IMG/VR virus record: IMGVR_UViG_3300042305_002533 | Coordinates: 32,001 to 96,000 of that record | Source of the DNA: a virus | Reading direction: 5' to 3' (one strand) | DNA: 64,000 bases | Part shown: piece by piece, positions 32,388 to 60,480 of the stretch | Layout of the letters: every line of letters begins with the position of its first letter | Numbering within the stretch: the first letter of the stretch is position 1 | The notes under the pieces: model-generated | Seen by the model: only the letters and a program-made list of their open reading frames with translations | Databases searched by the model: none | What the model was told of the DNA's origin: nothing | Translations under genes and position numbers: made by a program

Positions 32388-33209
32388 GTGCCTGTAAACA
32401 AGAAAGTTAAATCTGCACCTCTGAACGCTGACGCCCTGACTTCGAAGTATTTCAACGATGTCAGTCGGCACAAACTGCCTACGTTACAGGAGGAACGCCG
32501 ACTTTTCACGGCGTACAAAGACGCGCAGACGAAGGCTGAGATCGGAAGAACCGCAAGCGAGCGCACCCAAGGGGCGCGAGACCGCGCTGAGATCGGAAAA
32601 TCGATCGCGTGTGGCTATCTCCGATTTGTCATCCTACAAGCCCGCCGCAAAACTTCAGACCCGCAACTCCTGAAAGATTTAATCTCACAGGGCAACGTTG
32701 GCCTGATGCTCGGCATAAGCAAGTTCGATCTAGCGTACGGCGTACGGTTTTTGACGTACGCCGCCAGTTGGATCGACGTGTGTATGCAAGAGTATTTGCA
32801 TAAACTGGGAACGGTACACGTCCCCAGCCACACGCGAAAAGAAATGCGTAAGCGTAGAAAGAACGCCGCAGACCTGGAGGCGCAACAATACGAAGAGCCT
32901 CAAGTGACGTCGATCGCCAACGTTACGCTTATTTCCGATATCGAAACGGATCAGGCGCCGATTGAAAACGACCTGTTTCAATACATGATGCTGGCCGACC
33001 TGACCCGCGCCGAACAGCTCGTAGTTATTTACGCCCACGGGCTTAGAGGGAACGAGCTGTGTTCAGAGGACATCGCGCAGCTATTTTTTGAGCTCGATGG
33101 CTCAGTGTTTAGCCGCAACGAAATTGAACAAGCAAAGCAAGCGGGACTAAACAAGATCAAATCCCTCATGGCCGCGAAAGGCATCACGGCCATGAGGGAC
33201 TTTTTATGA
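32388..33209 (+). CDS. Sigma70-family RNA polymerase sigma factor (RpoD/RpoS-like regions 1.2 and 2)
   Basis: YFNDVSRHKL..EE, YLRFVI, DLISQGNVGLMLGISKFD..GVRFLTYAASWI, VHVP. Confidence 0.88.
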   Translation: MPVNKKVKSAPLNADALTSKYFNDVSRHKLPTLQEERRLFTAYKDAQTKAEIGRTASERTQGARDRAEIGKSIACGYLRFVILQARRKTSDPQLLKDLISQGNVGLMLGISKFDLAYGVRFLTYAASWIDVCMQEYLHKLGTVHVPSHTRKEMRKRRKNAADLEAQQYEEPQVTSIANVTLISDIETDQAPIENDLFQYMMLADLTRAEQLVVIYAHGLRGNELCSEDIAQLFFELDGSVFSRNEIEQAKQAGLNKIKSLMAAKGITAMRDFL

Positions 33210-35257: not shown

Positions 35258-37205
35258 GGTCCTCCTTCAGTACGTTGAGATACGCGGTGTTTGCCACCGG
35301 CTTGGCTACTTCAGCACTGTACTTACAGCCTTTGCGGAAAGGCCGAATCTCGTCGCGGGCGCAGTCATTCATACGCTCACAAGACGCGCATGAAATCCGC
35401 TCCAGCATGGTGTACGCCACGTTATCCTTAAACGCGAGCGTTCTCGCCAAAAAGCCGTCCAGAGCCTGGGGGTGCGTGGACAGCAAGCGGTAAACAACCA
35501 TGTTGCGCGTCTGCCCTGGGCGGTTATTGCGCTCAAGCGACTGCTTGTAGTGCGTCAGGTTCCAGGTCAGCGCATAATAAATCATGTAATTTGCGGCCGT
35601 GAGCGTAACGCCAACGCCGGAGCTTACCTGTCCGATGTACACTCGGCAGATTGGGTCAGTTTGAAAGCGGCGGCTTAGCTCTTCAATCCGGCTGGTCGTT
35701 GATCCGTCTACGCGAACGTATTCATAACCTGCGTCTGAAACGGCCGTCTCGATGTCATTGAGCTCCTCAAGGTACGTCGCCCAGACGATGACCTTGTTCG
35801 CGTCGTCATCAGACAGCACATTGCCCAAGAGCTCTTTGAACGTCGCAAGCTTCGGGTTGGAAAGTCGTTTTATGGTCGTAGGAGGTTTTTCTTTGTAAAT
35901 GTGACACCGCTCCGTGTACGGGCGCACCCCAGTTTTAACGCAGCCCTGCACGTGCTCGCAGCCGTCACAGACGAGCGGGTCGGCGCCCTCAATGACGAAG
36001 CCTGAAACTAACTGCAAGAGCTTATTGACAAGGGCACCGCCGTGCGGGGTAGAAACCCCGCGCCCGCGTAAAGCGTTGGACTCCGCGTACGCAGCAAAAT
36101 CTTTGAGCCGCGCAATGCTGGCGTCATACTCCCGCGCTTGCGCCGAGGACAGGTCGAAGGGCACGTCAATGAACGTAACGGGCGGGAGGTCAATACACTC
36201 CTTCTTTTTCATGCGCGTCGCGATGCCTTCGACGCGCGCGTTCAGTTCATCCAGGTCGCGGTAGCCGTAGACCTGATGCTTATTGAACTTGGAATACACA
36301 AAGTGCTTTTGTTGATACGCGTACCAGGGCATGGGCATAAGCGCCGGCGAAAGAAAGCGCATCTGTGCATAGAGCTTGCCCGGATGATCAGCCGCTGTTC
36401 CCGAGAGCAAGTAGCGGCGGCACGCCTTGGCTGATAGCGTCAGCGCCGCCTGCGTTTGGGAGCTCTCATAGTTCCCGATGGAGTGAGACTCGTCAGAGAC
36501 AATCACCTGGTAGTCCAGGTCTTTCAGGCGCTTGGGGTGTTTATTTTTTGGGTCGAACTCAAGCCGCGCGCGGGCGTAGGAGAGCACAACGACGTCGGCG
36601 GTCTGGGCCGCCTCGTAGCTTTTGTCCGTACCGTCCCAGATAACTGCGCGCAAAGCGCCCTGTGTGCAGCGGCGGACTTCGTTAACCCACGTAGGCAGCA
36701 CTACCGGAGGCGCCATCACCAACATGCGCTTGAGCTCGGGATTTTCACGGCGTGAAAGCCGGAAGCCGTCGATCATCGTACGCGTTTTGCCGGTGCCCAT
36801 CTCCCAGAGAAAGAACGAACGCCACCACGCGGCGATGCGGCGGATGCCCAGTCTCTGGTGACGGTAAGGCTCAAACCCCTTGGGGAATTCAAAATCTTCG
36901 GGTAACTCGACCTCTTCGTTCTGGGCGTACGCCGACTTGGCGGCCCCCCAGACGTTGTCGGTCGCGCGCAAGTCATTTACGAAAGAAAGCGCAGAGGCCG
37001 TCCACTCGAGGTCAGGCGCTAAAACTTTCAGATCGTGCGCTACCGAAAGCCCGAAAGGATAGTATGCTGGAAAGAGCCAGTCGGCTCCTGACTGCACGGC
37101 GCCGGTTACACGCCGCCAGGGATCAGGAGACACGCTCGTCGGCGTGATGCGCCAAACGGGCGTAAGATTTAGATGAAGGCCACTAACTTTCACGCTGGGT
37201 GCCAT
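35232..37205 (-). CDS. SNF2-family helicase/ATPase
   Basis: PYRHQ, EMGTGKT, DESH, LSGT, GVGVTLT, QSLERNNRPGQ. Start uncertain (37205 or 37229). Confidence 0.9.
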   Translation of the reverse strand: MAPSVKVSGLHLNLTPVWRITPTSVSPDPWRRVTGAVQSGADWLFPAYYPFGLSVAHDLKVLAPDLEWTASALSFVNDLRATDNVWGAAKSAYAQNEEVELPEDFEFPKGFEPYRHQRLGIRRIAAWWRSFFLWEMGTGKTRTMIDGFRLSRRENPELKRMLVMAPPVVLPTWVNEVRRCTQGALRAVIWDGTDKSYEAAQTADVVVLSYARARLEFDPKNKHPKRLKDLDYQVIVSDESHSIGNYESSQTQAALTLSAKACRRYLLSGTAADHPGKLYAQMRFLSPALMPMPWYAYQQKHFVYSKFNKHQVYGYRDLDELNARVEGIATRMKKKECIDLPPVTFIDVPFDLSSAQAREYDASIARLKDFAAYAESNALRGRGVSTPHGGALVNKLLQLVSGFVIEGADPLVCDGCEHVQGCVKTGVRPYTERCHIYKEKPPTTIKRLSNPKLATFKELLGNVLSDDDANKVIVWATYLEELNDIETAVSDAGYEYVRVDGSTTSRIEELSRRFQTDPICRVYIGQVSSGVGVTLTAANYMIYYALTWNLTHYKQSLERNNRPGQTRNMVVYRLLSTHPQALDGFLARTLAFKDNVAYTMLERISCASCERMNDCARDEIRPFRKGCKYSAEVAKPVANTAYLNVLKEDHENNTDAR

Positions 37206-38919
37206 GAGTTCTTCTCCCTCCGTTGACACGTCAAACCTCGCCGATCCAGTCGCACTGAACGGCGCAAACCACCCGAACCCGGCGTTTGATTACCTCACGG
37301 GGTTCGTACCAAGAAAGCTCAAGGACCTTTTCAAGTGGGCCGAATACCTCGCGTTCAACTCGGCGCACATCTACGGCGTCGTAAGAAAGTTCGGGGAGTA
37401 CCCGATTACGTCGTTCGTCTATGACACGACGTCGCCGGACGAAAAGCAGCGGCATCAAGACCTGTTTGAAAAAAAGACGCGGCTCAAGGGGTTTCTAACG
37501 CAGGTCTCGTTTGATAAGTGGATTTACGGCAACGCGTTCGTGAGCGTCTTTGAGCCTATCAAGCGCTGGCTCCGTTGCACCAAGTGCCGCACAAAAGAAG
37601 ACGTAAAAGTCGCGGATTACAAGTACGTCGACACTTCAACGGCGTTCAAACTGAAGTGCCGGAACTGCGGCTTTGAAGGCGTGGCCGAGGTCGAGGATGA
37701 GAAGCTGATCGACCCGTCGAAGATCAACCTGATCCGATGGGACCCGAAGCTCATCGACATTGACCACAACCCCGTAACCGGACAGAGCGTCTACTACTAC
37801 ACGATTCCGCGAACGCTCGTGCAGCAGGTCAAAGAGGGCAATAAGCATCTGATCGGCACCATGCCGATGGAGATGCTCAAAGCCATGAAGGCCAAGAAGA
37901 CCTTCAAATTTGCCGACGGTCAGATTTTTCACCTGAAAGTTCCAGGACCGGCGGGCGTGGAGTCGCAGTGGGGCTTCCCCCCGATCACCAGCGCCATCAA
38001 GCTCTTTTTGTTCGCCGCGATCCTTCGGCGCGCGAACGAGGCCATCGCGCTTGAGCACATCACGCCGTTTCGCGTAATTCACCCGCAAACCGCGTCAGGC
38101 AACGGCGATCCGCTTCTACAGCTCAATCTCGAAGAGTGGCGGCGAGAGCTGGAGAAAAATTACAAGCAATTCCGCAAAGACCCTCTGCGTATGCAGTTTT
38201 CACCCGTGCCCATCGGCGTCCAAAACGTCGGCGGAGACGGCCGCGCAATGCTGACGCTCGGCGAGCTACAGGAAGCGGAGAAGAACATTGTCCTGTCCAT
38301 GGGCGTGCCCATGGAGTTCCTGGCGGGCGGACTTGGGCAGATGCGCGGCGAGGTTACGCTGCGCATGTTGGAAAACCAGCTGCAAACGCACATCGAGGAC
38401 CTGAACGGGCTGATCCAGTGGGTCGAAGGAAAGTGCGCACGCTTCTTGGGCTGGGCTTCAATCCCGATGCGCCTCGCGGAGTTCAAGCTGCTTGACGACG
38501 TTGAGAACAAGCAGATTTACTTCCAGCTCTGGCAGCAGGGTAAGATCAGCGATACAAAGATCGGTGAACTCTTCGGCATCGACTGGGAGCACGAGCGCAA
38601 GCAGAAGATGGAAGATGTCTTGAGCGAAATGAAATCGCAGATGCAGCTTGAAGCTGCGCAGAAGAAGCTGCAGAACGCGCTCTCGCAACAGGCGGCAAAC
38701 AAAGCACAGATGTCTCAAAACCCGGCGCAGTACGACCAGCAGGCAATTATCGCGCAGGCCGATCAGATCGCCCAAGAGTTCGCCCAAATGGACATCGGCA
38801 CGCGCCGATCGCGCATGGACGCACTCAAGAACGAGGACCTCATCATGGCCTCGGTGGTGCGCGAGCGGCTTGAGCAGATGCAGCAAGACCAGGCAGCAGC
38901 ACAGCGGGCACAGGGATGA
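37204..38919 (+). CDS. Probable portal protein with zinc-ribbon insertion
   Basis: 571 aa; IYGNAFV, IFHLK..WGFPP, MGVP-x-EF motifs in portal-like order; CTKC..CRNC; Gln-rich C-terminus; first gene of head module. Confidence 0.6.
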   Translation: MSSSPSVDTSNLADPVALNGANHPNPAFDYLTGFVPRKLKDLFKWAEYLAFNSAHIYGVVRKFGEYPITSFVYDTTSPDEKQRHQDLFEKKTRLKGFLTQVSFDKWIYGNAFVSVFEPIKRWLRCTKCRTKEDVKVADYKYVDTSTAFKLKCRNCGFEGVAEVEDEKLIDPSKINLIRWDPKLIDIDHNPVTGQSVYYYTIPRTLVQQVKEGNKHLIGTMPMEMLKAMKAKKTFKFADGQIFHLKVPGPAGVESQWGFPPITSAIKLFLFAAILRRANEAIALEHITPFRVIHPQTASGNGDPLLQLNLEEWRRELEKNYKQFRKDPLRMQFSPVPIGVQNVGGDGRAMLTLGELQEAEKNIVLSMGVPMEFLAGGLGQMRGEVTLRMLENQLQTHIEDLNGLIQWVEGKCARFLGWASIPMRLAEFKLLDDVENKQIYFQLWQQGKISDTKIGELFGIDWEHERKQKMEDVLSEMKSQMQLEAAQKKLQNALSQQAANKAQMSQNPAQYDQQAIIAQADQIAQEFAQMDIGTRRSRMDALKNEDLIMASVVRERLEQMQQDQAAAQRAQG

Positions 38920-39666: not shown

Positions 39667-42600
39667 ATGACTCAGCTGACGCCCGTACTCACCGACGCCG
39701 AAACGCTTCGCGGGAAGATTCACGAGAAGGTCACGGGCGCGCTTACCAACGTGTTCCCGATGGACCTCAAAGGGCGCACGCTTGAGGTGAAGGACATCAA
39801 AGTCCATCACCGGGACTACTCGTCCGACGAGCAGAAGAAAGCCCTGCTGAGCGGCGACTCCCTGCAGACGCCGGTGAAGGGGACGTTGGTGCTCAAGGGC
39901 GCCGATGGGCGTGTGATCGACGAGGCGAAAAACTTTACCCTCGTCCACATCCCGTACATGACGCCACGGCACACCGTGATCGCGGACGGCAACGAGTATC
40001 AGTTCGCAAATCAGATTCGCCGTAAGCCCGGCGTGTACACGCAGCGCGCCGAAAACGGAGAGCTCAAGACGATCTTCAACACGGGTCGGGGCGATAACTT
40101 CAATCTCAGCTTCAACGAAGCCAAGGGCACGTTCTCGCTACAGTACGGAACGAGCAACATTCCGCTCTACGCAACCTTACGGGGCTTGGGCGTAACGCAC
40201 GACGAGATCTCCAAGCATCTCGGAGAAGGCGTCGCCAAGGCCAATCAAGTCGCGCACGAAAAGCACATTGATACGGCGATCTCGAAGCTCTACCAGAAGC
40301 TCGAACACCCGGCCGTTTACGACCCGAAACTCCCGCACGTCGCCAAAGCCGAAGCGATCAAAAAGAAGTACAGCATCGCGTCGCTTGACCCGGACGTGAC
40401 CGAGCACACGCTGGGGCAAGCGCACGACCGCGTAACCCCGACCGCGCTTCTTCACGCCGCGAAAAAGATGCTCGCCGTGCACAACGGCAAAATCCCGGTC
40501 GACGATACCGACTCGCTGACCTTCAAGACCTTCCACGCCGTCGATGACTTCCTGGCCGAGCGCATTCGTCTGACGGCGCGCACCTGGACGCCCAAAGCCA
40601 AGATGGCGTTCAGCGGCAAGAACAACATTCGTGAGGCGCTACGCCCCGCGCCCTTCTCGGATTCGATCCGCAAGTTCGTGACGACGTCGTCTTTGACGGC
40701 CGTGCCCAGCGGAATCAACCCGCTGGAGCTCATGGATCACGCCGTGAAAGTCACGTCGCTCGGAGAGGGCGGGATCAGCTCTGACCGTGCGATTCCTCTT
40801 GACGCCCGCATGACGCACGCGACGCACTTCGGGGCGCTTGATCCAATACGCACGCCTGAGTGTTTAACCGGCGACGCCGAAGTCTTTACCGCAACGGGCT
40901 GGAAGCGCGCTGACGCCCTTACAGAATCGGACGCCCTCGCTTGCCGGATCGACGGTCGCCTTGAGTTTCATAAACCCGAACGGCTGATTGCCGCGCACTA
41001 TTCGGGCCCACTTCACGGCGTGAACACAGGGAAACTTGAGTACCTGGTCACTCCAAACCACCGCGTTTGGTGCGCTCCCGTAGACGCCGTGTACCCCCTT
41101 GATCAACCCCACGGAACTGGTTGGCGGTTTAGTCGCGCTGATGAAATTCACGCAAAACCTCGCGTATTTGATACTGGGCACGGCGCATTTATTGGAGCAG
41201 GGCCGGACACATTTCAACTGCCTGAAGTCGACGGCGCGCATAATGTGCGGAACGCCGGGCCTATCCCTATGCCGGATTGGGCAGCGTTCATGGGCTGGTA
41301 CCTTTCCGAGGGCTCGATTGGTCGGCACGAAGGGCGCCTGACGCACGTCCTTATTTCCCAAGACCGCACGGCTAATCCCGACTGTTGTGATGCTATCGAA
41401 GCCCTACTTTCTAGGCTGCCGTTTGGCTGGAGGTATGACGCCGCTAGCCGGGCGTTCGCCATTAGCGGAAAACAGCTTGCGAGTTACTTAGAGCCTTTTG
41501 GTTTTTCCCAGGATAAGTACATTCCCGAGTCCTTCTTCAATACCTCTATTGAAGCCCGGGAAAATTTGCTTGAAGCCTTACTGTTGGGCGACGGGCGAAT
41601 CAACAGCGTTCGGGCTACCGGCAAAAATTACAAACAGCAAGTGTTCTGCACTACGAGTGCCCGTCTTGCAGAAGGAGTTGAACGGTTAGCCATCTCTCTA
41701 GGAAAATCGCCTAGGACTCGTCGCTACTCAGATAAGCGAGAAGAGCGATATCTTGATACCTATGAAGTTCGCCTGCTCCGCGACCGGTATCGGCAAGCGG
41801 TTCCTAGAAAAGGCCACTACTACGTAAGGCTCCACGACGGGCTGGTGTATTGCGCCACCGTTCCGGGTGGGCTGATGTACATCCGCTATGGCGCTGGGAT
41901 TGGACACTGGTCCGGTAACTCAGGCCATGCCGGTGTAGACATCCGCGCAACCATCGCCGCGCACCGAGATGACCGGGGAAACTTCTACACGGCCATGAAG
42001 GACGTGAAGACCGGGAAACAGGTCTTCGTGCGAGCCGGCGACCTCGTCAAAAACGTCGTGGCGTTCCCCGGGCAAAACCTCAAGGGGGGCGTCAAAGCGT
42101 TCGTCAACGGGAAGATTGAAGAAGTGCCGGGCTCACGGGTGACGCACGAGATGCTGCACCTGTCGCACCAGTACTCACCGGCGACGAGCCTCATCCCGAT
42201 GATTCACAACATCCAGGGCAACCGCGCGATCATGGGTTCCAAGATGGGAACTCAGGCGCTACCCCTGCTTGATCGGGAGACGCCCTACGTCCAGGTAAAG
42301 AGCCATCTGCCGGGCGAGGTGTCGTTTGAAAAGGTCTACGGGCATCTGACCGTGCCGACATCGCCGGTGCACGGGACGGTGGAGAAGATCCAGGACGGGT
42401 ACATTTATATCCGGCCGCACGGGGAGAAGAAGGCCGAGGACCGCCCCGTCCTTGAGCAGCGGAAGCTCGGGCCGCACACGTTCAACCTGGAGATGATGCG
42501 CCACCAGTTTGAAGACGCCCCTGGCAGGCTCACGACCCGGTCGGGCAACTGGGACTACGGACATCTCCCCGGCTACACGGGGCCTGATGGCGACTCCCTC

Positions 42601-45600
42601 GACTTCTTCGTCGGCGACCACCCCGACGGGCACATCTTCTCGTTCGACAAGCAGCACAACGCCGACGGCAAGGGCTGGAAGACCACGGACACAAAGTTTG
42701 TGGTGGGCGTGACGCCCGAGCAGAAGGCGGAGTTCCGTCGCCGTCAGGCCGTGTACAACTCGGGGCCCGCACCCATGCGGCACGCGAACATCCGAGAGTT
42801 CAAGGACTGGAATCACCTTCAGCAGCACATCAACGAGCACTTCAAGAACGAGAAGGTCGCCGCTGCCAAGGACGACGGCCTCATCAAAGTCCCCTACGAA
42901 ACGAACTTTCCGTTCCCCTCGAAGACCTACCTGCATCACGACATTCAGGTAAAGCCGGGACAGACGGTTCAGCAGGGGCAGCGCCTTGGCGACTCGAACT
43001 TCACGCGCAACGGCACGCTCGCGCTCGGGAAGAACCTGCTCGTCGGATACATGGCCTATCACGGCTTGAACTCCAACGACGCCGTCGTCATCAGCGAAAG
43101 CTGCTCCAAAAAGCTCACCAGCGAGCACATGTACCGCGAGATCTACCCACTCTCGTCACAAATCGAGCTCTCGCGCGACAAGCACAAATCCTATTACGGC
43201 ACCAAGTTCACGCCGCAGCAGTACGCGAAGCTTGATGCTTCCGGCGTGATCAAGCCCGGTACGCGTGTTGACCCAAAAGACCCGCTCGTACTCGGGCTGA
43301 CGCGCGCTCAGATTCAAGGGCAAGACCTTCTCCTTGGGCGCATCTCGAAGTCGCTGACCAAGCCCTACAAAGACGTCGTGCTTCAATGGGAGCACGGCAC
43401 GCCCGGCGTGGTCGTTGAAGTCCTCCGAAGCTCGGGGCAGATCGCGATTCTGATCAAGACCCAGGAGCAGATGCAAGTCGGCGACAAGCTGGCCGGGCGT
43501 TACGGGAACAAGGGCGTCGTCGCGAAGATCGTCGCTGATCACGAAATGATTAAGGACGAGAAAGGCCGCCCGCTCGATCTCATCCTGACGTCCGCTGGCG
43601 TCGTAAGCCGCATCAATCCCGCACAGGTCATCGAAACCGCCGTCGGCAAAGTCGTCGAGAAGACGGGCAAGCCCATTCTCTACGACAACCAGGAGCACAA
43701 GGACGCCGTTCAGTGGGCCAAGGGGCTTTTGAAAGAGCACGGCATCAAAGACAAAGAGCACGTCTTTGACCCTGTGACCAAACGGACGATCGTCGGGCCT
43801 GACGGCAAGGGCGTACTCGTCGGGCGGCAGTTCATCTACAAGCTCTTCAAGAGTACGGACACAAACTTCTCAGGCCACGGCGTCGGCCCGTACGACGTAA
43901 ACGAACAGCCCCTGAAGACTGGCGGGGACGAGAGCGCCAAGGGCATCGGCAAGATGGAGTTCGACGCCATCGTGGCCCACAACGCCCGTAACTTTCTGCA
44001 GGAGGCCGCGTCAATCAAAAGCCAGAAGAACGATGAGTTCTGGCGTGCGATCCAGCTCGGGATGCCGCTGCCGACCCCAAAGCCTTCGTTCGCCTTCAAC
44101 AAGTTCACCGCCATGCTTGAAGGCGCGGGGATCAAAGTCGACAAGCGGGGGTCGAAGTTCAAGCTCTTGCCGCTGACCGACAAAGACATCACACAGCGCA
44201 GCAAAGGCGCGATCACCGAAAAGGAAACGCTGATCGCCAAGAACCTGAAGCCGATTAAGGACGGACTCTTTGACCCGCTGAAGACAGGCGGGCCTCAAGG
44301 CACGCTGTACTCTCACATCGACCTCCATGAGCCGATCCCGAACCCGGTATTCACCGAGCCGGTGCGGCGCCTTCTCGGGCTGTCCACAAAAGACTTCGAG
44401 CAGCGGCTACACGACCATGGCGGCGCGTGGTTTCACAAAGAGCTTCAAAAGATCGACGTTGACACGAAACTCAACGAGCTCACCAAGGCGATGAACAAAG
44501 CGGCGGGCCCTGAGCTCGACAACCTCGTCAAGCAGGTGAAGTACCTCCGCGCCCTGAAGAGCGAAAACCTGAAGCCCCACGAAGCTTACATCCTGTCCAA
44601 GGTGCCGGTGATTCCGCCGGTCTTTCGCCCGGTGCTGCCCGAAATGCGCGACCCGTCCAAGCTGATGGTTGCGGACGCCAACAAGCTTTACGGGCACCTT
44701 CTCGACACGAACAATACGCTCAAGACCACTGCCCTTGAGAGCGATCGCGGCAAGCACCGCGCCCTTGTCTTTAAGTCTGTCGGGGCGGTCTTCGGCATGA
44801 ATGACCCCGAGGACGAGAAGCTGCAGAAGCAGGAAGTGAAAGGCTTCCTACAGAATATTGCAGGCGTGGGCTCCCCGAAGGGCGGCTTCTTTCAGCGCAG
44901 GCTCATGCGCCGAACGCAAGACGTATCAGGACGTGGAACGGCCGTGCCGGACGGAAACCTCGGCATGGATGAAGTGGGCATTCCGGAGCAGATGCTCTGG
45001 CAGATGCTCGACAAACTCATCGTGGCGCGCCTGGTCCGGCAGGGATACTCAGCCCTGCAGGCGCGCGAACTTGTCGACAAAAAAGCGCCCGTCGCCCGCG
45101 AAGCTATGCTGGCTGAAAGTCGTGAGCGTCCCGTACTGATCAACCGCGCGCCGACGCTTCACCGCTGGTCGGTTGTGGCCGCGTATCCAAAGCCGGTGCA
45201 GGGCAAGACGATCCGCGTCAACCCCTTCGTCGAGAAGGGCATGAACCTCGACTACGACGGCGACACCCTTCAGGTGCACGCGCCCGTTCAACCGGGGGCC
45301 GTCGAAGACGCAAAGAAGATGACGCTCAGCCAGATGCTCCTGGCGGACCAACAGCGTAACAAGCTCATGGCCTTCCCACAGCACGAGGCCATCATCGGCT
45401 TTACGCTGGCGTCAAAGGCCACACCTACGGGACCGGCGCACCGATTCAAGACGCGCGACGAAGCCATGGCCGCGTGGCGTTCCGGCAAACTCAAGCTCAC
45501 GGATGGCGTCATCATCGAGCACGAAAAGAAAGCGGGAGCCGACGATTTTAGCGAGCCTTTAGACGGCACGCCGATGACGTCTGACGACGCGCTATGCTAT

Positions 45601-45645
45601 TACCCAGCGGAGAGTGTGACGGGCTATGAACCGCAAGCTAGCTGA
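39667..45645 (+). CDS. Phage multisubunit RNA polymerase: beta fused to N-terminal beta' (intein-containing)
   Basis: Beta: QIRRKPGVY, HFGALDPIRTPE, NRAIMGSKM, GKNLLV, GDKLAGRYGNKGV, SRIN, GKME. Beta': GLFDP, HIDL, VPVIPP.FRP, SGRG, NRAPTLHR, catalytic NLDYDGD (45244-45264). Confidence 0.95.
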   Translation: MTQLTPVLTDAETLRGKIHEKVTGALTNVFPMDLKGRTLEVKDIKVHHRDYSSDEQKKALLSGDSLQTPVKGTLVLKGADGRVIDEAKNFTLVHIPYMTPRHTVIADGNEYQFANQIRRKPGVYTQRAENGELKTIFNTGRGDNFNLSFNEAKGTFSLQYGTSNIPLYATLRGLGVTHDEISKHLGEGVAKANQVAHEKHIDTAISKLYQKLEHPAVYDPKLPHVAKAEAIKKKYSIASLDPDVTEHTLGQAHDRVTPTALLHAAKKMLAVHNGKIPVDDTDSLTFKTFHAVDDFLAERIRLTARTWTPKAKMAFSGKNNIREALRPAPFSDSIRKFVTTSSLTAVPSGINPLELMDHAVKVTSLGEGGISSDRAIPLDARMTHATHFGALDPIRTPECLTGDAEVFTATGWKRADALTESDALACRIDGRLEFHKPERLIAAHYSGPLHGVNTGKLEYLVTPNHRVWCAPVDAVYPLDQPHGTGWRFSRADEIHAKPRVFDTGHGAFIGAGPDTFQLPEVDGAHNVRNAGPIPMPDWAAFMGWYLSEGSIGRHEGRLTHVLISQDRTANPDCCDAIEALLSRLPFGWRYDAASRAFAISGKQLASYLEPFGFSQDKYIPESFFNTSIEARENLLEALLLGDGRINSVRATGKNYKQQVFCTTSARLAEGVERLAISLGKSPRTRRYSDKREERYLDTYEVRLLRDRYRQAVPRKGHYYVRLHDGLVYCATVPGGLMYIRYGAGIGHWSGNSGHAGVDIRATIAAHRDDRGNFYTAMKDVKTGKQVFVRAGDLVKNVVAFPGQNLKGGVKAFVNGKIEEVPGSRVTHEMLHLSHQYSPATSLIPMIHNIQGNRAIMGSKMGTQALPLLDRETPYVQVKSHLPGEVSFEKVYGHLTVPTSPVHGTVEKIQDGYIYIRPHGEKKAEDRPVLEQRKLGPHTFNLEMMRHQFEDAPGRLTTRSGNWDYGHLPGYTGPDGDSLDFFVGDHPDGHIFSFDKQHNADGKGWKTTDTKFVVGVTPEQKAEFRRRQAVYNSGPAPMRHANIREFKDWNHLQQHINEHFKNEKVAAAKDDGLIKVPYETNFPFPSKTYLHHDIQVKPGQTVQQGQRLGDSNFTRNGTLALGKNLLVGYMAYHGLNSNDAVVISESCSKKLTSEHMYREIYPLSSQIELSRDKHKSYYGTKFTPQQYAKLDASGVIKPGTRVDPKDPLVLGLTRAQIQGQDLLLGRISKSLTKPYKDVVLQWEHGTPGVVVEVLRSSGQIAILIKTQEQMQVGDKLAGRYGNKGVVAKIVADHEMIKDEKGRPLDLILTSAGVVSRINPAQVIETAVGKVVEKTGKPILYDNQEHKDAVQWAKGLLKEHGIKDKEHVFDPVTKRTIVGPDGKGVLVGRQFIYKLFKSTDTNFSGHGVGPYDVNEQPLKTGGDESAKGIGKMEFDAIVAHNARNFLQEAASIKSQKNDEFWRAIQLGMPLPTPKPSFAFNKFTAMLEGAGIKVDKRGSKFKLLPLTDKDITQRSKGAITEKETLIAKNLKPIKDGLFDPLKTGGPQGTLYSHIDLHEPIPNPVFTEPVRRLLGLSTKDFEQRLHDHGGAWFHKELQKIDVDTKLNELTKAMNKAAGPELDNLVKQVKYLRALKSENLKPHEAYILSKVPVIPPVFRPVLPEMRDPSKLMVADANKLYGHLLDTNNTLKTTALESDRGKHRALVFKSVGAVFGMNDPEDEKLQKQEVKGFLQNIAGVGSPKGGFFQRRLMRRTQDVSGRGTAVPDGNLGMDEVGIPEQMLWQMLDKLIVARLVRQGYSALQARELVDKKAPVAREAMLAESRERPVLINRAPTLHRWSVVAAYPKPVQGKTIRVNPFVEKGMNLDYDGDTLQVHAPVQPGAVEDAKKMTLSQMLLADQQRNKLMAFPQHEAIIGFTLASKATPTGPAHRFKTRDEAMAAWRSGKLKLTDGVIIEHEKKAGADDFSEPLDGTPMTSDDALCYYPAESVTGYEPQAS
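40861..41919 (+). mobile_element. Intein with LAGLIDADG homing endonuclease in RNAP beta
   Basis: PIRTPE|CLTGD ... VTPNH ... GWYLSEG, ALLLGDG ... VYCATV..WSGN|S; 353 aa. Confidence 0.92.
42436..42861 (+). other. Inorganic-pyrophosphatase-like domain inserted in RNAP beta
   Basis: DYGHLPGYTGPDGDSLDFFV and DTKFVVG match family I PPase motifs; bounded by EKKA and EKVA. Confidence 0.75.
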
Positions 45646-46237
45646 CATGTTGAGCGGGGGCCTGACTTCGACGTCGATCAAGCGCCCAGGCGAGCCAATG
45701 ATTCACGCCGTGAAAACGGAAGGCCCGCTCGGTAACCTGTTGAAGTCGATGGTCCCCGGGCCCTCGATGCACGTGATGCTCCGCGACATGGTGCCGTCGG
45801 CGATGAGCGGCGATGATTGCGGCTGCGACAACGTAGAAATCTTGAAGAAGCTGTCGTCCAAGAAGTACCAGCTGATCCTCGCGTACATTCATTACGGAGA
45901 TCAACTACGGGCGCTCTACCGGGACGGCATCTACGAGCACTTTCAGGAGCACCTGGAAGAGGAGCGCGCCCAGCTCTATCAGATCAACAAGAAGGTCACC
46001 GCCCTGGGGCATGACGCACCTTGTTGTCCGGGCGAAGTGCCGCCGGTGCCGCTCAACGACGCCAAGGCGATTTTTCGTGTCGCCCTGAAGATCGAAGAAG
46101 AATCGGTGCAACTCTGGTCCGATCTTTTCCGTCAAACCGACGACGACGTCGCCCTCAACGGCATGGCCCAGACGTATGCCCAGGAGTGCCAGGGGCACGC
46201 AGACGATCTGAAGCGCTATCTGCGGAGCTGTGAATGA
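45626..46237 (+). CDS. Ferritin-like (bacterioferritin/Dps fold) protein
   Basis: EHLEEERAQ..KVTALG, ALKIEEE, ECQGHADDL four-helix pattern. Confidence 0.65.
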   Translation: MNRKLADMLSGGLTSTSIKRPGEPMIHAVKTEGPLGNLLKSMVPGPSMHVMLRDMVPSAMSGDDCGCDNVEILKKLSSKKYQLILAYIHYGDQLRALYRDGIYEHFQEHLEEERAQLYQINKKVTALGHDAPCCPGEVPPVPLNDAKAIFRVALKIEEESVQLWSDLFRQTDDDVALNGMAQTYAQECQGHADDLKRYLRSCE

Positions 46238-47900: not shown

Positions 47901-49706
47901 ATGCCTACGCCCATCTCCGTTGGTCACTTCTTGATCAACGACGTCTTGCCCGAGACCCACAAAATCACCGGGCCGGTCACGAACAAAAACGTGCACGATC
48001 ACGTCGTCGGTCTGGCCAAAGCTAACCCCGCCGAGTACGTGAACGTCATCACGGCGCTTAAGCGGCGAGGCGACGAAATTGCCACACTTGAAGGTGTGAG
48101 CGTCGGCCTTGACGACATCGCACCCGATTACAAAGCACGCGACGCGATCTTGAAACCCGCGATTGCGAAGATTGAAAAAGCCAAGACCGAGAGCGAGCGG
48201 GAAAAGCTCGTCATCGAGGCGCAGAACGCGCTACTGGAGTACACAAAAAAGCACCCCGGCTCGATGACGCATATGGCACTTTCCGGAGCGCGCGGAAACC
48301 CCGCACAGCTCATGAAGATCGTCGCGACGCCGCTGGCGGCGGTGCACCCGAAGCACGGTATCGAGCGGATACCCATCAAGCGGAGCTACTCCGAAGGGTT
48401 GACCGCCGCCGAGTACTGGTCGACCGTGCCTGAGGTTCGCGCCAATAACGTCGCTACCGTGGTGTCGGTCTCCGAGCCCGGAGAAGTCGCCAAAGTCCTC
48501 GTCAACAACATGATCGGGACGACTGTCACGCGGCCGGATTGCGGAACAAAAAACGGCGTGCACATGCGCCTCGACGACGGCCACATTCTGGACCGGTACG
48601 CACAAGCCAGTCACGGAGTAGCCCGCAACACCTTGATTACCCCCCGGCTCGTACAGGAGCTTAAAAGCAAAAACATCCAAGAGCTCCTCGTGCGCTCACC
48701 GATGACGTGCGCCGCTTCGCATGGCGTCTGCCAGCATTGCCAAGGGCACAGCGAAAAGGGGCAGCTTCACGGGATTGGCGCTCCGGTGGGCGTGCGTGCC
48801 GCACAGGCCCTGGCGGAGCCTTTGACACAGATGGCGCTCTCCTCGAAGCACGCCGTACTAACAATCAAAGAAAAAAAGTTGGAGCCTACGGGCCTCAAAG
48901 GTTTCCGCCAATACCTTGAAATTCCAAAAGCGTTCAAATACGAAGCGGTACTCGCCCCGCAAGCCGGGCTTGTAACAAAAATTGAGAAGGCGCCGCAAGG
49001 CGGGCACTATGTTGTCGTTGGTGCTGAAAAGCTTTACGTCCGCCCAGAACTCAGCGTTACCGCGCACGTCGGGATGCACGTAGAGCACGGAGACGCTTTG
49101 ACCAACGGTGTGCCTAATCCGCAAAAAATCGTCGCCGCAAAAGGCCTCGGGGCGGGCCGCGCATATTACGTCGGGGCCATTCACCGGGTCTACCAAGGCG
49201 AAGGCATAAACTTGGATAGGCGTCACCTGGAGCTCTTGGCCAAGAGCGAGATGAACCACGTCCGCCTTCTAGACGCCGACCCAGAACACCCCGAGTTTCT
49301 CAAAGGCGACGTCATTAACTACAACGCCTTCCGAGAAGCGTACTCCAAAGACGTCACACACATGCCGCTCTCCGAAGCTATAGGAAAGCGGCTGGGGCAA
49401 GAGATACTACACCACACGGTCGGAACCCCAATAACGCCGGCTCTTGTAAACGAGCTGAAAAGCAAAGGCGTTCGCGAGGTCCTTGTAAACAAGCGGCTCC
49501 CTCCGGTAGAATTTGTGATGAAACCATTCACCATGAACCCGCTACACGAAAGTGATTGGATGGCGCGGCTGGCGCACCGGTACCTCAAGGGGTCCATTCA
49601 GCAGGCGGCGCAATTTGGAGAAACGTCCGACATTCATGGCGCCCACCCAATTCCGGCTTACGCTTACGGAGCCGAACTTCGCCACGGCCCGTCGGGCGGA
49701 TACTGA
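47901..49706 (+). CDS. RNA polymerase beta' C-terminal subunit
   Basis: GVSVGLDDI, SGARG, SYSEGL, DCGT, RSPMTC..GVCQHC, AAQALAEPLTQM, RRHLELL. Confidence 0.93.
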   Translation: MPTPISVGHFLINDVLPETHKITGPVTNKNVHDHVVGLAKANPAEYVNVITALKRRGDEIATLEGVSVGLDDIAPDYKARDAILKPAIAKIEKAKTESEREKLVIEAQNALLEYTKKHPGSMTHMALSGARGNPAQLMKIVATPLAAVHPKHGIERIPIKRSYSEGLTAAEYWSTVPEVRANNVATVVSVSEPGEVAKVLVNNMIGTTVTRPDCGTKNGVHMRLDDGHILDRYAQASHGVARNTLITPRLVQELKSKNIQELLVRSPMTCAASHGVCQHCQGHSEKGQLHGIGAPVGVRAAQALAEPLTQMALSSKHAVLTIKEKKLEPTGLKGFRQYLEIPKAFKYEAVLAPQAGLVTKIEKAPQGGHYVVVGAEKLYVRPELSVTAHVGMHVEHGDALTNGVPNPQKIVAAKGLGAGRAYYVGAIHRVYQGEGINLDRRHLELLAKSEMNHVRLLDADPEHPEFLKGDVINYNAFREAYSKDVTHMPLSEAIGKRLGQEILHHTVGTPITPALVNELKSKGVREVLVNKRLPPVEFVMKPFTMNPLHESDWMARLAHRYLKGSIQQAAQFGETSDIHGAHPIPAYAYGAELRHGPSGGY

Positions 49707-50638: not shown

Positions 50639-52801
50639 ATGAGTCTGCTAAAGCATGCAATGGTGGCCGGCATCAATGACGCCCTCGTCGACAATGGTGT
50701 CGTGTCGTGGCCGAATGAGGCGGTCGGGTTCGAGGTGTGCTCGAAGATCGCGGCCGATCTAGACGGCCCCGACGTGCTGCCCGAGGGCGGCCTCTCGGGG
50801 GAGAGCGCGCTCCTCATCGGTAATCGGATCAAGGAGGCCTCGGAGCTTCTGATCGCCAATGGCTATGGCCAAGACCCGGAGTCGGCGCTGCGCACCAAGC
50901 AAGCAGCGGAGATGAACTTCGAGGACCGCGCTGCGATGGTAGCCGAGGCGTGTATGTCGAAGGCCGCCGCCGAGGCGTCGCTCACCGACGTTGGGCCGAA
51001 TACCGCAGAGTCGGCGGCGCAGACCGATCAGCATGCGGCGCTTGATCTCAAGAACCGCGCCATGAACAAGTACCTCACCGGCGTCGGCCGTACGATGTTC
51101 CCGAGCGGGGGCGTCATAGGCCAGCAGATGATGGCGCCCGAGCGCCAGTCGGGCCCTGCGATTTCTAACAGCCTGACGTCGTTGGATAAGCAGGCGAATG
51201 TATCGCGTCGAGAGATGGCGGAGTACCTGGCAGGTCTCGGCTTATCCCCCCAGCAAATTGCAGAGCAGCTGGGCCCGGAGCCGCGCATGGATAAGCTGCG
51301 GGAGGGCCTTGGCCGAGCGGGCGGGACTATCGCCGATTACCTCGGCCGCATCCCCACAAACCCCTTCGCGGGTGCGGGCGGGCAAGGCGTGCTCGGTGGG
51401 GCGAAGCACATCGGCGGAAACCTTCTACGGCACCCGGGCACCCATGCCGCCGCGCTCGCCACTGCTCTGTATGGTGGCAACAAGCTTATTAAAGGGCTAA
51501 CTGCGGACAAGGCAGACGCTGACGCTTTTATGCAAGCCGCCGCCGACGGCGGCAATGCAGAGATGGCCGACTATTTGGCCAGTAAGCAGGCCAACGAAGA
51601 CATGGCCGCTGCTGACCTCGCCGAGGCGTCGGACATGACTCCGGGGCCGACCCCGGGGGCCCTACAGCGCGCAATGATGTTCCTTAGCGGGCTGAAGAAC
51701 CGTATCCCGAGTTTCCGCCCGAGCCCGGAGGCTGTAGCGGCCGCCTCCGGCCTTGGGGAAGAGGGCGCTCCCGGGATGGAAGTCATGGCGCACCTCCTTG
51801 ATGGCGTGAAGACCGCCGAGGATGCCGAAGCCGCGCTGCAGCACGTATTCGAGTTGCAAGTTGCGAACGAGAAGACCGCGTCGGTCCAGCTGTATGAGGC
51901 GGTGCAGGAGAAGGTTGCTGACGAGGCTGCGGCCGCTGCGCAAGGCGCCAAGGAAGCCCCCGGGGCGCTCCGCCAAGCCGGAGCCGCAATAATGCGCAAC
52001 AAGCTTCGGACAGGCGCAGCGCTAGCAGGAACTGCCGCTGCCTTCTACGGCGGCAAGAAGTACCTCGACCACCGCAAGGCCAAGAGGGAAGAGGCGGCCA
52101 AGAAGGAAGAGGAGTCGAAGGCAGAAGAGAAGGCGGCGGCGCTTCTTGAGTACCTGAAGCAGGCTTCCGAGGGCGAGGCCGCTGCGAAAGCAGTTACGGA
52201 CGCCGGCAAGGAAGCCCCCGGGGCGTTCCGCCGAGCCGGAGAAGCAGTAATGCGCAACAAGCTTCGGACAGGCGCAGCGCTAGCAGGAACTGCCGCTGCC
52301 TTCTACGGCGGCAAGAAGTACCTCGACCACCGCAAGGCCAAGAAGGAAGAGGCGGCGCGCCAGCAAGAAATGTCGCCCAAGGCGGCCTCTCTACTGGAGT
52401 ACCTCAAGGCCGCTGCGGACGGTTCGCTTACGGACGTCGGGGAGAACACGCCCGAGTCGGCCGCGCTGACCGACTCCGTGGCTGAACTCGACATGCAGAA
52501 CCGCTCGCCCAATGAGTACCTCATGGGCGTCGGCAAGACCCGCATGTCGAACAAGGGCCAGGTCTACGCCGTGGAGGACGCGGGCCAGGACAATCCCGTG
52601 CAGACGCACAATCTGCCCACGGACGAGACCAAGAGCGCTGAGCTTGCGTACGTGAACAACTTCCGCAAGATCGCCGCCGATCTCGGGCCTTACCTTCCCG
52701 CGACCATGAGCCGCGACGAGAAGGTTGCGCACCTTCAGACCATGCTCGGCCTCCCGCCGTCCGAGCGCGTCCAGTACGTGCAGGCTCTTCGCGCCGGCTG
52801 A
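50639..52801 (+). CDS. Putative internal head polyprotein, very K-x-A rich
   Basis: More than a dozen K-x-A motifs; internal duplications; strong codon bias. Confidence 0.7.
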   Translation: MSLLKHAMVAGINDALVDNGVVSWPNEAVGFEVCSKIAADLDGPDVLPEGGLSGESALLIGNRIKEASELLIANGYGQDPESALRTKQAAEMNFEDRAAMVAEACMSKAAAEASLTDVGPNTAESAAQTDQHAALDLKNRAMNKYLTGVGRTMFPSGGVIGQQMMAPERQSGPAISNSLTSLDKQANVSRREMAEYLAGLGLSPQQIAEQLGPEPRMDKLREGLGRAGGTIADYLGRIPTNPFAGAGGQGVLGGAKHIGGNLLRHPGTHAAALATALYGGNKLIKGLTADKADADAFMQAAADGGNAEMADYLASKQANEDMAAADLAEASDMTPGPTPGALQRAMMFLSGLKNRIPSFRPSPEAVAAASGLGEEGAPGMEVMAHLLDGVKTAEDAEAALQHVFELQVANEKTASVQLYEAVQEKVADEAAAAAQGAKEAPGALRQAGAAIMRNKLRTGAALAGTAAAFYGGKKYLDHRKAKREEAAKKEEESKAEEKAAALLEYLKQASEGEAAAKAVTDAGKEAPGAFRRAGEAVMRNKLRTGAALAGTAAAFYGGKKYLDHRKAKKEEAARQQEMSPKAASLLEYLKAAADGSLTDVGENTPESAALTDSVAELDMQNRSPNEYLMGVGKTRMSNKGQVYAVEDAGQDNPVQTHNLPTDETKSAELAYVNNFRKIAADLGPYLPATMSRDEKVAHLQTMLGLPPSERVQYVQALRAG
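51949..52356 (+). repeat. ~150-bp near-identical direct repeat (258-bp period) encoding a basic/hydrophobic peptide module
   Basis: KEAPGA..MRNKLRTGAALAGTAAAFYGGKKYLDHRKAK twice, starting 51949 and 52207. Confidence 0.95.
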
Positions 52802-52823
52802 AATCGCTTACAGCTAGCGCCTC

Positions 52824-52866
52824 CCAAACGCCTGCGGCTATACTAGCCGCAGGCGTTTGGCTTTTT
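52824..52866 (+). terminator. 17-bp perfect inverted repeat plus T-tract
   Basis: CCAAACGCCTGCGGCTA-TAC-TAGCCGCAGGCGTTTGG-CTTTTT. Confidence 0.85.
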
Positions 52867-52879
52867 GAGGAGCAGCACA

Positions 52880-55369: not shown

Positions 55370-55380
55370 CGTGAACGTTT

Positions 55381-56091
55381 ATGCCCCCACTCCCGCCCGA
55401 TCACCGTGCGCTCCGTATCATTGGCGAGGCGCGCCGGCAGGCTGAAACCCAGGCGCAAGACCCGCTAGAGCGAGAGCTTTTTCACTTCGTGAAAACCGGA
55501 GAGACCGCGTCGACGGAGCTCCGCGTTGCAGTAAATTTGTACGCCGACGCAGAGTTCCGACACATTCTTAACGCGTTGATTTTAACCAACGCGAATGAGG
55601 AGCTAGTCACCGGTACCCTGGGCCTTCAACCGGCCAGCCTTGAGATCTACCGCCACTTTTTCTTTGACAGCACGGTATTTGCCCACAATCTAGCTAAAAC
55701 CCGCCACGTAAAGGAGTTAACCTGCTCCCCGGAGCTCAGGTATCTATACGAGCTTGCAATTGAGCGCGGCCCGATAGAACTCCTGGACCGGTACCGAATC
55801 GGAACGCGCCCGCATATTGAGCCCGATGCGCTTATGAAAGACGCACTGGCCGACATGTGGGGCAAGTTCGTGACGCACCGGGGGTATAGTGTCACCTCAG
55901 ATACCGCAAAAGAAGCGTTGCGCTGGGGAGAAGCCGCGTTACGTACGGCCAAGGTGGTGCTTGAAACCGGTCGTGAAGAGCGCAAGGGCGCTAGCACGGT
56001 TGACGATTTGCGGATCGCCCTTGAAATCCGAAACCAAACCAAGAGCCTCGAAGACTTGGGCGTCACGGCTGACGACCTCGTCGTCGAGTAG
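55381..56091 (+). CDS. Hypothetical protein
   Basis: 236-aa ORF in operon; few K-x-A motifs. Confidence 0.7.
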   Translation: MPPLPPDHRALRIIGEARRQAETQAQDPLERELFHFVKTGETASTELRVAVNLYADAEFRHILNALILTNANEELVTGTLGLQPASLEIYRHFFFDSTVFAHNLAKTRHVKELTCSPELRYLYELAIERGPIELLDRYRIGTRPHIEPDALMKDALADMWGKFVTHRGYSVTSDTAKEALRWGEAALRTAKVVLETGREERKGASTVDDLRIALEIRNQTKSLEDLGVTADDLVVE

Positions 56092-56111
56092 CCTAGAATT
56101 GGATTAACGCC

Positions 56112-58504: not shown

Positions 58505-58505
58505 G

Positions 58506-58721
58506 ATGCTTGTTTCAAAAAACCTACGAGACACCCTTCGCTACGACGGCTACGCAAAGCTGGCTGCGCAGATCATGCGCGATCAGAACGAGTACGTTGG
58601 CGATATCACCGACTTAATGGGCGGAATCAAATCTGTGTCGGTGAAAATTGCGGTCAACCGTATGAACGAGCAAACTATTTGGGACGGCCTTCACGCCTAC
58701 CAACAGCTAAAGGGCGGTTGA
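58506..58721 (+). CDS. Small hypothetical protein
   Basis: 71 aa, exactly fills gap; KLA and KIA. Confidence 0.65.
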   Translation: MLVSKNLRDTLRYDGYAKLAAQIMRDQNEYVGDITDLMGGIKSVSVKIAVNRMNEQTIWDGLHAYQQLKGG

Positions 58722-58722
58722 A

Positions 58723-60468: not shown

Positions 60469-60480
60469 ACTAATCACACC

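Follow-up and report, generated by a model that had tools for sequence, protein, structure and literature searches.

The stretch of viral DNA examined here, referred to as the window, is 64,000 nucleotides long and comprises bases 32001 to 96000 of a 130,678-base IMG/VR virus record (IMGVR_UViG_3300042305_002533) that is estimated to be 76% complete. It contains a gene for a fused multisubunit RNA polymerase (RNAP) in which beta is followed by the N-terminal half of beta' (39667 to 45645, + strand, 1992 amino acids; identified from the open reading frame (ORF) list, its translation, and Pfam). A hairpin in the beta part of this chain holds an InPase domain, which has a minimal family I pyrophosphatase (PPase) fold and an intact two-metal acidic site. 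In related phage RNAPs the same loop is empty, holds an InPase, or holds other modules. A short motif, Lys-x-Ala (K-x-A), flanks the loop, is kept across relatives, and is enriched in the head-module proteins of both this phage and Salmonella phage Arash. We lean towards reading the hairpin as a hypervariable slot and the insert as one of its interchangeable cargo modules, in a phage RNAP that is probably packed in the capsid.

The insert is approximately 138 amino acids in length (residues 924-1061; 42436 to 42849, + strand) and interrupts a hairpin of the SBHM domain, which lies ahead of the beta catalytic barrel. The border motif on the N side is E-K-K-A (residues 920-923; 42424 to 42435, + strand), and on the C side it is E-K-V-A (residues 1062-1065; 42850 to 42861, + strand), both read from the DNA. 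The order in translation is ...VHGTVEKIQDGYIYIRPHG-EKKA-EDRP...WDYGHLPGYTGPDGDSLDFFVGD...EHFKN-EKVA-AAKDDGLIKVPYETNFPFPSKTYLHHDIQVKPGQTVQQGQRLGD.... The outgoing strand of the host hairpin (IYIRPHG; 42403 to 42423, + strand) aligns with the strand ahead of the loop in Arash and in Vibrio phage D69. The return strand and the remainder of the SBHM domain (AAKDDGLIKVPY...VKPGQTVQQGQRLGD; 42862 to 42993, + strand) are placed by alignment with the same two phages. Compared with Arash gp206 and D69, the domain is a clean insertion into a short hairpin between two conserved strands, and Arash reads VHIKGEDGKEHRVDFVKNLPF at this place. According to the available text of Iyer et al. 2021, bacterial and phage beta have in common an SBHM domain immediately N-terminal of the catalytic barrel of beta.

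A first-pass annotation of this DNA had described an insert of about 140 amino acids interrupting RNAP beta between EKKA and EKVA, and the translation, the DNA, and the Arash and D69 alignment agree with it to the residue. The interval that it gave, 42421 to 42870, corresponds to ORF residues 919-1068 and reads G-EKKA-EDRP...DYGHLPGYTGPDGDSLDFFVGD...EHFKN-EKVA-AAKD, with both motifs included. The hairpin that receives the insert is in the SBHM region, upstream of the VKPGQTVQQGQRLGD segment that had been called barrel-sandwich-like. At the DNA level, both borders of the insert share GAGAAG..GCC. Slightly further downstream, a weak Peptidase_M23-like Pfam match is present at RNAP residues 1087-1117 (E 0.03).

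The identity of the insert was examined with profile searches and structure prediction, and it models as a family I PPase fold, an OB-type barrel. Searched alone, the 150-amino-acid insert matches Pfam PF18823 (InPase) at 29.7 bits (E 6.7e-7; cut-off 26.8 bits). The same family scores 25.3 bits in the full 1992-amino-acid protein, just below the cut-off, and 29.1 bits in a six-frame scan of the genome. A phmmer search with the insert against 1.84 billion representatives returned 100 proteins at E <= 0.001, including 13 at E <= 1e-10 and 7 at E <= 1e-30. A profile (A2) built from 34 of these proteins was compared with PDB sequences and matches residues 633-731 of the portal of Pseudomonas phage Pa193 (9b41_L, E 2.6e-17), followed by canonical PPases from E 1.6e-5; PPases make up 33 of the 42 rows, and 5 of these are at E <= 0.001. 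Searched against PDB sequences with phmmer, the insert alone gives no match at E <= 10. In the available text of the Pa193 paper, only portal residues 94-528 are modelled, and the 9b41 entry is therefore without an experimental structure of a viral InPase.

AlphaFold2 (AF2) with an 85-row alignment gives a predicted local distance difference test score (pLDDT) of 84.5 and a predicted template modelling score (pTM) of 0.80. Low confidence is confined to residues 1-4 and 150-166 of the 166-amino-acid query (pLDDT < 50 at 150-166), which are the linkers and include the C-side EKVA. Prediction from the single insert sequence reached a pLDDT of only 37.8, and that model was discarded. In Foldseek against the PDB, all 40 rows shown among ranks 1-50 are family I PPases. 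All 50 entries listed by VIA-align are also family I PPases, with Z of 7.0-7.8 and a root-mean-square deviation of 3.2-3.9 Å over 111-123 amino acids. Among the predicted viral structures in BFVD there are 18 matches at E <= 0.001; these include phage proteins named 'inorganic pyrophosphatase domain-containing', the portal of Serratia phage MTx, and polyvalent-protein-like giants.

The metal-binding motif D-G-D-S-L-D (D974, D976, D979; 42586 to 42603, + strand) occupies conserved columns and aligns with GEDGDPLD of the solved PPase 4ecp. Positions D963, Y964, G965, D974, D979, and K1010 are invariant or nearly so in the family alignments (A2 and A3). The remaining acidic positions of the predicted site are filled by E942, D976, and D1008, and K1010 and Y964 are also site residues. 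All four conserved acidic metal ligands of InPase (E942, D974, D979, and D1008) are present in the insert. In 58-59 of the 59 slot InPase copies of relatives, the site positions hold acidic residues, Lys, or Tyr. Judged from these columns, the metal site of the slot InPase is under strong constraint.

Canonical family I PPase (PF00719) is not among the matches to the insert at E <= 1. The profile alignment to 4ecp has a 12-residue gap where canonical enzymes carry their first hairpin, and in the AF2 model strands E23-29 and E49-57 are connected by one short helix and a loop. Because PF00719 is unmatched and the first-hairpin region is missing, the insert is filed as InPase and not as a canonical PPase. 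The two share the fold and the DxDxxD and D-x-K metal and phosphate site, and the window domain is the shorter of them. Bacterial PPases form hexamers, an assembly that is impossible for the InPase while it is tethered in the polymerase. The family I metal site recognized in the first-pass annotation thus stands, as does the fold, and the assignment is narrowed to a branch without the hairpin that bears some PPi-binding residues.

Four points count against this identification or against an assumption of canonical activity. No Foldseek match to the PDB reaches E <= 0.001, the best being 6.8e-3, and VIA-align Z values below 8 are middling by the tool's own grading; the sequence-profile evidence is independent of both. 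The InPase branch is without the hairpin that carries pyrophosphate (PPi)-binding residues of canonical PPases, as set out in the available text of Iyer et al. 2017 (PMC5512222). A putative role of the domain is hydrolysis, as infection starts, of PPi or a related phosphoanhydride. We know of no PF18823 member that has been assayed.

The content of the hairpin varies widely among relatives. A scan of IMG/VR gave 22 related loci, nine of which were translated. None of the nine has an InPase at the slot, and the match lengths of the other 13 are too short to contain one. In L006, which is 83% identical, the slot is empty and reads PHKEKQAEKTAAASDAKLVKVPY. The filler is 36 amino acids in L008, L009, and L010 and shorter in L007 and L025, and Arash-like loci have the hairpin alone. 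A larger sample was obtained by searching residues 780-1250 against 5.8 billion proteins, which returned 1209 proteins at E <= 1e-10; the best 120 of the 1209 were examined. The slot set analysed consists of 120 RNAPs, made up of 116 from this best-120 list, P0005, P0007, and P0021, and the window's own; the N flank could not be located in Arash, D69, or P0036.

Slot length in the 120 RNAPs ranges from 9 to 534 amino acids. It is 40 amino acids or fewer in 51, 41-130 in 4, and more than 130 in 65. An InPase was found in 56 of the 120 slots, the window's own included, with a hidden Markov model made from alignment A3; the share is inflated because the set was drawn as the best of 1209 matches to a query that contains the insert. 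Nine long slots are without an InPase. Other contents include a P-loop module, with Pfam AAA_18 recorded for three relatives, and recurring modules recognized by '(I/V)TGNP', 'LYxYVP...', 'NHAAL...GYAPW', and glycine-zipper segments. Some slots have two InPases of different subtypes. Whereas the window slot holds a single module, slots of relatives hold up to three or more (two InPases, P-loop, ITGNP-type, Gly-zipper).

The second commonest cargo is a module of about 110 amino acids that belongs to no Pfam family and reads '...(I/V)TGNPxYxxNNPxAxxFYxxIExHLxxLGYxVxRDPGxPHTSPP...'. It is carried in the slots of P0104, P0105, P0109, P0153, P0174, P0177, and P0197.

When the RNAP flanks alone, without the slot, are placed on a tree (119 rows), the presence or absence of InPase requires 26 changes, of which at least 16 are forced by well-supported branches. 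Two sets of RNAPs have identical flanks and differ in slot state. The slot copies are scattered over several places when 137 InPase domains are placed on a tree, with 6 changes, at least 2 of them forced. Standalone phage proteins, among them a paralogue from the same genome, form the sister group of the main slot InPase clade. Turnover of the slot, as these trees depict it, is very fast. The reading of the beta loop as a hypervariable slot with interchangeable modules is strongly supported by the aligned relatives. A variable cargo slot was the fallback offered by the first-pass annotation, and the slot contents, module borders, and turnover among the 120 RNAPs make it the best-supported part of that annotation.

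An assembly chimera was considered as the source of the insert and is ruled out. The reading frame is continuous, an independent fragment (P0004) is 92% identical over the insert region, and InPase recurs at the same place in the sampled RNAPs; chimeras are also unlikely as the source of 65 independent long slots. A recent copy from the genome's own InPase paralogue is likewise ruled out. The paralogue is 35% identical to the insert, compared with the 54-92% reached by slot copies in other RNAPs, and its clade lies outside the main slot clade, as its sister.

This paralogue is a standalone protein of 422 amino acids encoded outside the window (G000:C1:117949-119217, - strand; locus L005:886-2154), and it aligns with the insert over 139 amino acids (E 8e-22). 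EKQA stands ahead of its InPase and MKVA and QKSA after it, and the domain is flanked by a proline-rich N-terminus and hydrophobic segments. Pfam assigns no family to it at E <= 0.01, and it scores 16.5 bits in the genome scan. The protein resembles another K-x-A-bounded carrier of this enzyme.

The slot-bearing clade is known from metagenomes only. Neither a megablast search with the RNAP gene nor a tblastn search with the insert gave a match in 50,697 deposited phage records, and no close copy of the insert is deposited there. P0006 and P0008, considered as possible natural gene splits, begin or end at slot borders; a scan of viral contigs for this gave only a 70% relative without the insert.

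The frequent gains and losses invite the view that the InPase is a neutral or selfish cassette that recombines into a tolerant loop, intein-like and of no benefit to the phage. The same RNAP gene also tolerates an intein, and relatives as close as L006 are free of cargo. Against this, the catalytic residues are retained in 58-59 of 59 slot copies across deep divergence, the module has no homing endonuclease or other mobility function, and the slot has captured InPases from different branches of the family. We regard a mere passenger as very improbable.

A second alternative concerns the target of the enzyme. The InPase may be a counter-defence or host-takeover effector directed at a nucleotide-like signal or alarmone, with the polymerase serving as its vehicle only, whether cut or uncut. 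Such a role was proposed for the InPase of polyvalent proteins from its links to NUDIX, GNAT, and TmrB domains, as given in the available text of PMC5512222. The P-loop kinases and unnamed modules in slots of relatives fit this role, as does turnover of the speed expected of arms-race genes, and so does the missing PPi-binding hairpin. The metal site is that of PPases, however, and InPase is by far the commonest cargo (56 of 120, in a biased sample) of a polymerase whose product is PPi. An effector of this kind seems an unlikely, though not negligible, explanation.

The borders of the slot carry the K-x-A motif with considerable regularity. Of the 120 RNAPs, 93 have K-x-A in the first 9 amino acids of the slot and 106 have it in the last 14; for K-x-[AGS] the counts rise to 116 and 119. 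The InPase starts within three residues of K-x-[AS] in 56 of 60 copies, internal ones included, in the form ...K-x-A-E-D-R-P. Empty slots retain one or two K-x-A, for example AKTASEDGL and EKQAEKTAA. In slots with several modules, K-x-A stands at the module borders and is rare within modules; in P0105, for example, it occurs at slot positions 3, 126, 272, and 415 with the modules in between. The long slots together contain 224 K-x-A compared with 123 expected (standard deviation 10). Across the aligned slots, K-x-A is found at nearly every module border.

The motif also precedes a second optional module of the polymerase. A third E-K-K-A (residues 1953-1956) is followed by an acidic C-terminal tail of 36 amino acids (motif and tail together 45523 to 45642, + strand; read from the translation, with a conserved ...ALxYYPAExVTG...). 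In 95 of 114 relatives, K-x-[AS] occurs within 40 amino acids after the last conserved RNAP motif and is followed by the acidic tail (...ALSYYPAExVTG...); some relatives end before the tail. The tail is possibly a removable docking or targeting tail. The RNAP contains three EKxA compared with 0.9 expected, and these are exactly the two insert borders and the site before the C-terminal tail.

Outside the polymerase, the motif is concentrated around the head module. Ten ORFs there contain 101 K-x-A compared with 38 expected from shuffles (z 10.6), 25 EKxA compared with 2.9, and 40 K-x-A-[AS] compared with 7.9; this count is circular because the ORFs were picked by their K-x-A z-score. The independent tests are two, the contrast with other spacings and the Arash set, and only these. 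The same ten ORFs are flat for KA, KxxA, KxxxA, AK, AxK, AxxK, RxA, and ExA. In Arash, the eight proteins gp218-gp225, located between the helicase and the major capsid protein and chosen by position, contain 44 K-x-A compared with 19.4 expected (z 6.6) and 14 EKxA compared with 1.4 (z 10.5); KA is flat there, and KxxA reaches z 1.9. Other Lys-rich proteins of the window genome show no excess (37 K-x-A compared with 39.7).

The K-x-A-rich block extends over window positions 50639-64000 and 17826-18848 (+ strand), with a two- to four-fold excess that is often in the form E-K-x-A-A/S. Most of its ORFs have no match in Pfam or PHROGs. One of them (58723-60468, + strand) has matches to Gly-zipper_YMGG (25.6 bits) and Gly-zipper_Omp (23.7 bits), both just below cut-off. 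Similar glycine-zipper segments are RNAP slot cargo in P0112, P0113, and P0167.

The polymerase itself belongs to a group with a virion-associated member. Its Pfam matches are Rpb2_6 (E 1.8e-41), Rpb1_2 (E 2e-18), Rpb2_2, Rpb2_3, and Rpb1_1, with the beta domains preceding domains 1 and 2 of beta', and the chain stops shortly past the NLDYDGD catalytic loop. The closest named relatives are Arash gp206 and the proteins of Vibrio phages D69, D181, and D148, at 34-35% identity (approximately 35% for gp206). The C-terminal half of beta' is a separate gene (47901 to 49706, + strand; Pfam Rpb1_5 E 2.9e-15) that is 30% identical to Arash gp216 (E 2e-75). The portal gene lies upstream of the RNAP gene (37204 to 38919, + strand) and is 32% identical to the Arash portal gp204 (E 5e-103). 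Portal, RNAP, and the C-terminal half of beta' are thus homologous and syntenic with gp204, gp206, and gp216, and the order portal, small ORF, RNAP is common to the window and to Arash as annotated.

The available text on Arash (PMC10585845) reports gp206 as the most detected virion protein, with 3516 spectra and 100% coverage. Among the proteins next in detection is gp216, and the particle also contains a sigma factor and a 'pyrophosphatase', Gp023; the authors caution that abundant enzymes may be carry-over. Because the homologous Arash RNAP is abundant in virions, the window RNAP and its cargo are likely to be packed in the head and injected.

A candidate head-maturation protease is encoded downstream (60481 to 63519, + strand) and is homologous to Arash gp222. 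Arash gp222 matches PHROG 18299, 'head maturation protease', at E 2.1e-6, while the window homologue does so only at E 0.0025; PDB sequences gave no match. The window homologue is twice the length of gp222 and has Hint, intein, and LAGLIDADG matches at approximately residues 182-547, all below the Pfam cut-offs; it is probably a further gene that carries an intein.

These observations can be joined into a tentative working scheme. The surface hairpin of the SBHM domain, ahead of the beta catalytic barrel, acts as a landing pad for modules, with short (E)-K-x-A-(A/S/E) linkers as their joints. The polymerase would be packed in the head and injected, with the modules of the hairpin riding along. 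Within the prohead, the head-maturation protease would cut at K-x-A, freeing the InPase and removing the acidic C-terminal tail, and the polymerase would then persist as two pieces held together non-covalently by the hairpin's own strands. Polymerase newly made in the cytoplasm would carry the enzyme in cis. Hydrolysis of PPi would pull early transcription forward, or else the enzyme would destroy a nucleotide-type host signal. Removal of PPi beside the enzyme that makes it would be the simplest role, with a nucleotide signal as the main alternative target. Clearing of PPi to aid early transcription has already been proposed for InPase generally, in the available text of PMC5512222.

For cleavage at K-x-A by the head protease, the arguments for and against appear about equally strong. 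Cutting is favoured, indirectly, by an excess that is specific to one spacing and common to two phages whose polymerases are 35% identical, and by the presence of K-x-A at nearly every module border, in linkers that are disordered in the model. The candidate protease gene and the EKQA ahead of the InPase in the standalone paralogue count on the same side.

Several findings pull the other way. Over the whole RNAP, K-x-A occurs no more often than expected (12 compared with 12.5), and the bare motif cannot suffice as a site, because one copy lies within the conserved GDKLAGRYGNKG motif. A context score derived from head-protein sites gives 0.4, 3.0, and -0.4 for the three RNAP EKxA (training median 3.0, control median -5.0), which places them in the upper range of controls, a moderate result only. 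By a crude test, homology breakpoints in BLAST alignments fall within 6 amino acids of K-x-[AS] in 21% of cases compared with 9% at random, an excess of only about two-fold. The Arash proteome table, in the available text of PMC10585845, gives coverage only, and the slotless gp206 is at 100%. A single beta gene was found in the 76%-complete genome, so the uncut polymerase must work too.

This last point bears directly on a third alternative, that the InPase is never cut and is a tethered accessory enzyme on the polymerase surface, clearing the PPi of each nucleotide addition, with K-x-A serving as flexible joints or as repeats for cassette recombination. With one beta gene, the polymerase made during infection must function with the domain in cis. 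Related InPase domains function as fusions, for example to portals (available text of PMC5512222), and fusions of a polymerase to a phosphohydrolase are known, such as the HD domain on beta of Bacillus jumbo phages (available text of PMC7824862). The GAGAAG..GCC shared by the borders could act as microhomology for gain and loss of modules. A plain linker, however, leaves unexplained the spacing-specific excess of K-x-A in unrelated head-module proteins of two phages, the retention of one or two K-x-A in empty slots, and the K-x-A ahead of the optional acidic tail; a glycine-zipper-type cargo also has no obvious use on a polymerase. We consider a permanently tethered enzyme possible but rather doubtful.

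The cargo-module reading can also be stated in a more far-reaching form. The first-pass annotation had already suggested that a protease could excise the PPase and split the polymerase at maturation. In the extended form, the polymerase would be a polyprotein from which an (E)-K-x-A head protease frees an array of cargo in the prohead (pyrophosphatase, kinases, and membrane-active peptides), so that a split polymerase and swappable enzymes are present 1:1 and are all injected. The loop would then be a capsid-targeting device for a pool of arms-race genes. Taken as a whole, this version falls a little short of an even chance.

The nearest known systems differ from this arrangement in several respects. 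The InPase of polyvalent proteins and portals, in the available text of PMC5512222, belongs to the same family, with a minimal family I PPase fold that has four conserved acidic residues and lacks a hairpin between strands 1 and 2, and its carriers are thought to be packed in virions and injected. Those domains are strung in polyvalent proteins or fused to the end of a portal, whereas the window InPase is nested in a loop of multisubunit RNAP beta. Polyvalent proteins carry several unrelated effector domains per virion-delivered chain; the window chain carries one module and has an RNAP subunit as the carrier. In the domain list of the same text, the single-subunit N4-like virion polymerase is the only polymerase named. 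A processing peptidase of the polyvalent type (MPTase) was sought with Pfam, and no peptidase family is above cut-off in P0001; any processing would fall to a separate head protease.

The Arash virion RNAP (available text of PMC10585845) has the same fused beta and N-terminal beta', the same place after the portal, approximately 35% identity, and the same K-x-A excess in the head module. Its slot is a short hairpin with no K-x-A and no cargo, and gp206 is without an intein and without the acidic C-terminal tail.

Bacterial RNAP beta and beta' carry lineage-specific insertions (E. coli beta i4, i9, and i11), which are large, lie in surface loops, are stable within lineages, and are mostly repeated beta-beta' modules. 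The phage slot, in contrast, has unrelated enzymes, varies between near-identical polymerases, and is bordered by a conserved motif. Known prohead protease motifs (T4, phiKZ) end in Glu.

The prohead-protease systems of T4 (gp21), phiKZ (gp175), and SPN3US (gp245), in the available text of PMC10052503, share with the window a short motif that recurs in many internal head proteins. They also have a protease gene in the head module, for which the window has a candidate, and injected proteins in the head, a virion RNAP among them, which is probable for this phage. In SPN3US, the same text describes a head protease that trims many internal head proteins at a short motif, with the virion RNAP among the head proteins, and cuts that remove N-terminal propeptides. 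The putative motif here is K-x-A instead, and the putative cuts would lie inside an enzyme fold and free whole domains rather than N-terminal propeptides.

The fused RNAP chain has three extras relative to a plain chain: the insert, the acidic tail, and an intein that lies outside the cargo slot. The intein is 353 amino acids in length (C399...N751, then S752; residues 399-751; 40861 to 41919, + strand), splits the conserved beta motif DPIRTPE/SG between E and S, and has a weak LAGLIDADG_3 match in Pfam. P0004 is without the intein and reads DPIRTPESGSAGVDIRAT there. Other relatives have RNAP gene inteins elsewhere: in L008-L010 the intein follows GDKL and starts with C, and in P0021 it lies in the NLDYDGD loop.

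The 76%-complete genome has one sigma-70-type ORF (32388-33209 of the window, + strand), with a sigma-70 region 2 match of 37.8 bits. The polymerase probably works with a sigma factor of the phage itself, as in Arash (gp10). Directly after the RNAP gene and overlapping its end is a gene for a ferritin-like protein (45626-46237, + strand; PF00210, E 3e-11). Many large ORFs, presumably for tail or outer structural proteins, are very poor in lysine, at 0.3-2% compared with 5-10% in the other genes of the genome. Examples are G000:C1:24931-28749, 101370-104294, and 123084-124052, and window positions 4222-5496 and 5944-7992. The lowest content, 0.3%, is in one ORF of 1272 amino acids.

No account of an InPase within an RNAP or of a K-x-A protease motif was found in the published literature, in a search that missed most subscription journals and supplements. 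Three features were not described in the papers searched: a multisubunit RNAP with exchangeable enzyme modules in an internal loop, the K-x-A border motif, and a protease specificity that would be for Lys-x-Ala. Phage effectors that are injected, insertions in polymerases, protease-processed head proteins, and virion RNAPs are already known separately, and it is their combination that was found in none of these papers.

One surface hairpin of an essential multisubunit RNAP serves as a socket for whole enzymes, which are swapped between near-identical polymerases. For engineering, the slot also provides a site that tolerates insertions. If a protease does cleave at the motif, this would represent a new protease specificity, a new means of loading capsid cargo by riding within a packaged enzyme, and a natural polymerase that works with a cut beta chain. 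Cultured Arash shares the motif excess, so the protease question is testable now. If the motif is not cut, this polymerase would be the first to carry a built-in pyrophosphatase at a set place in its chain, and a direct test bed for the extent to which product removal limits transcription. Either way, the slot flags its unnamed modules as likely early-infection effectors.

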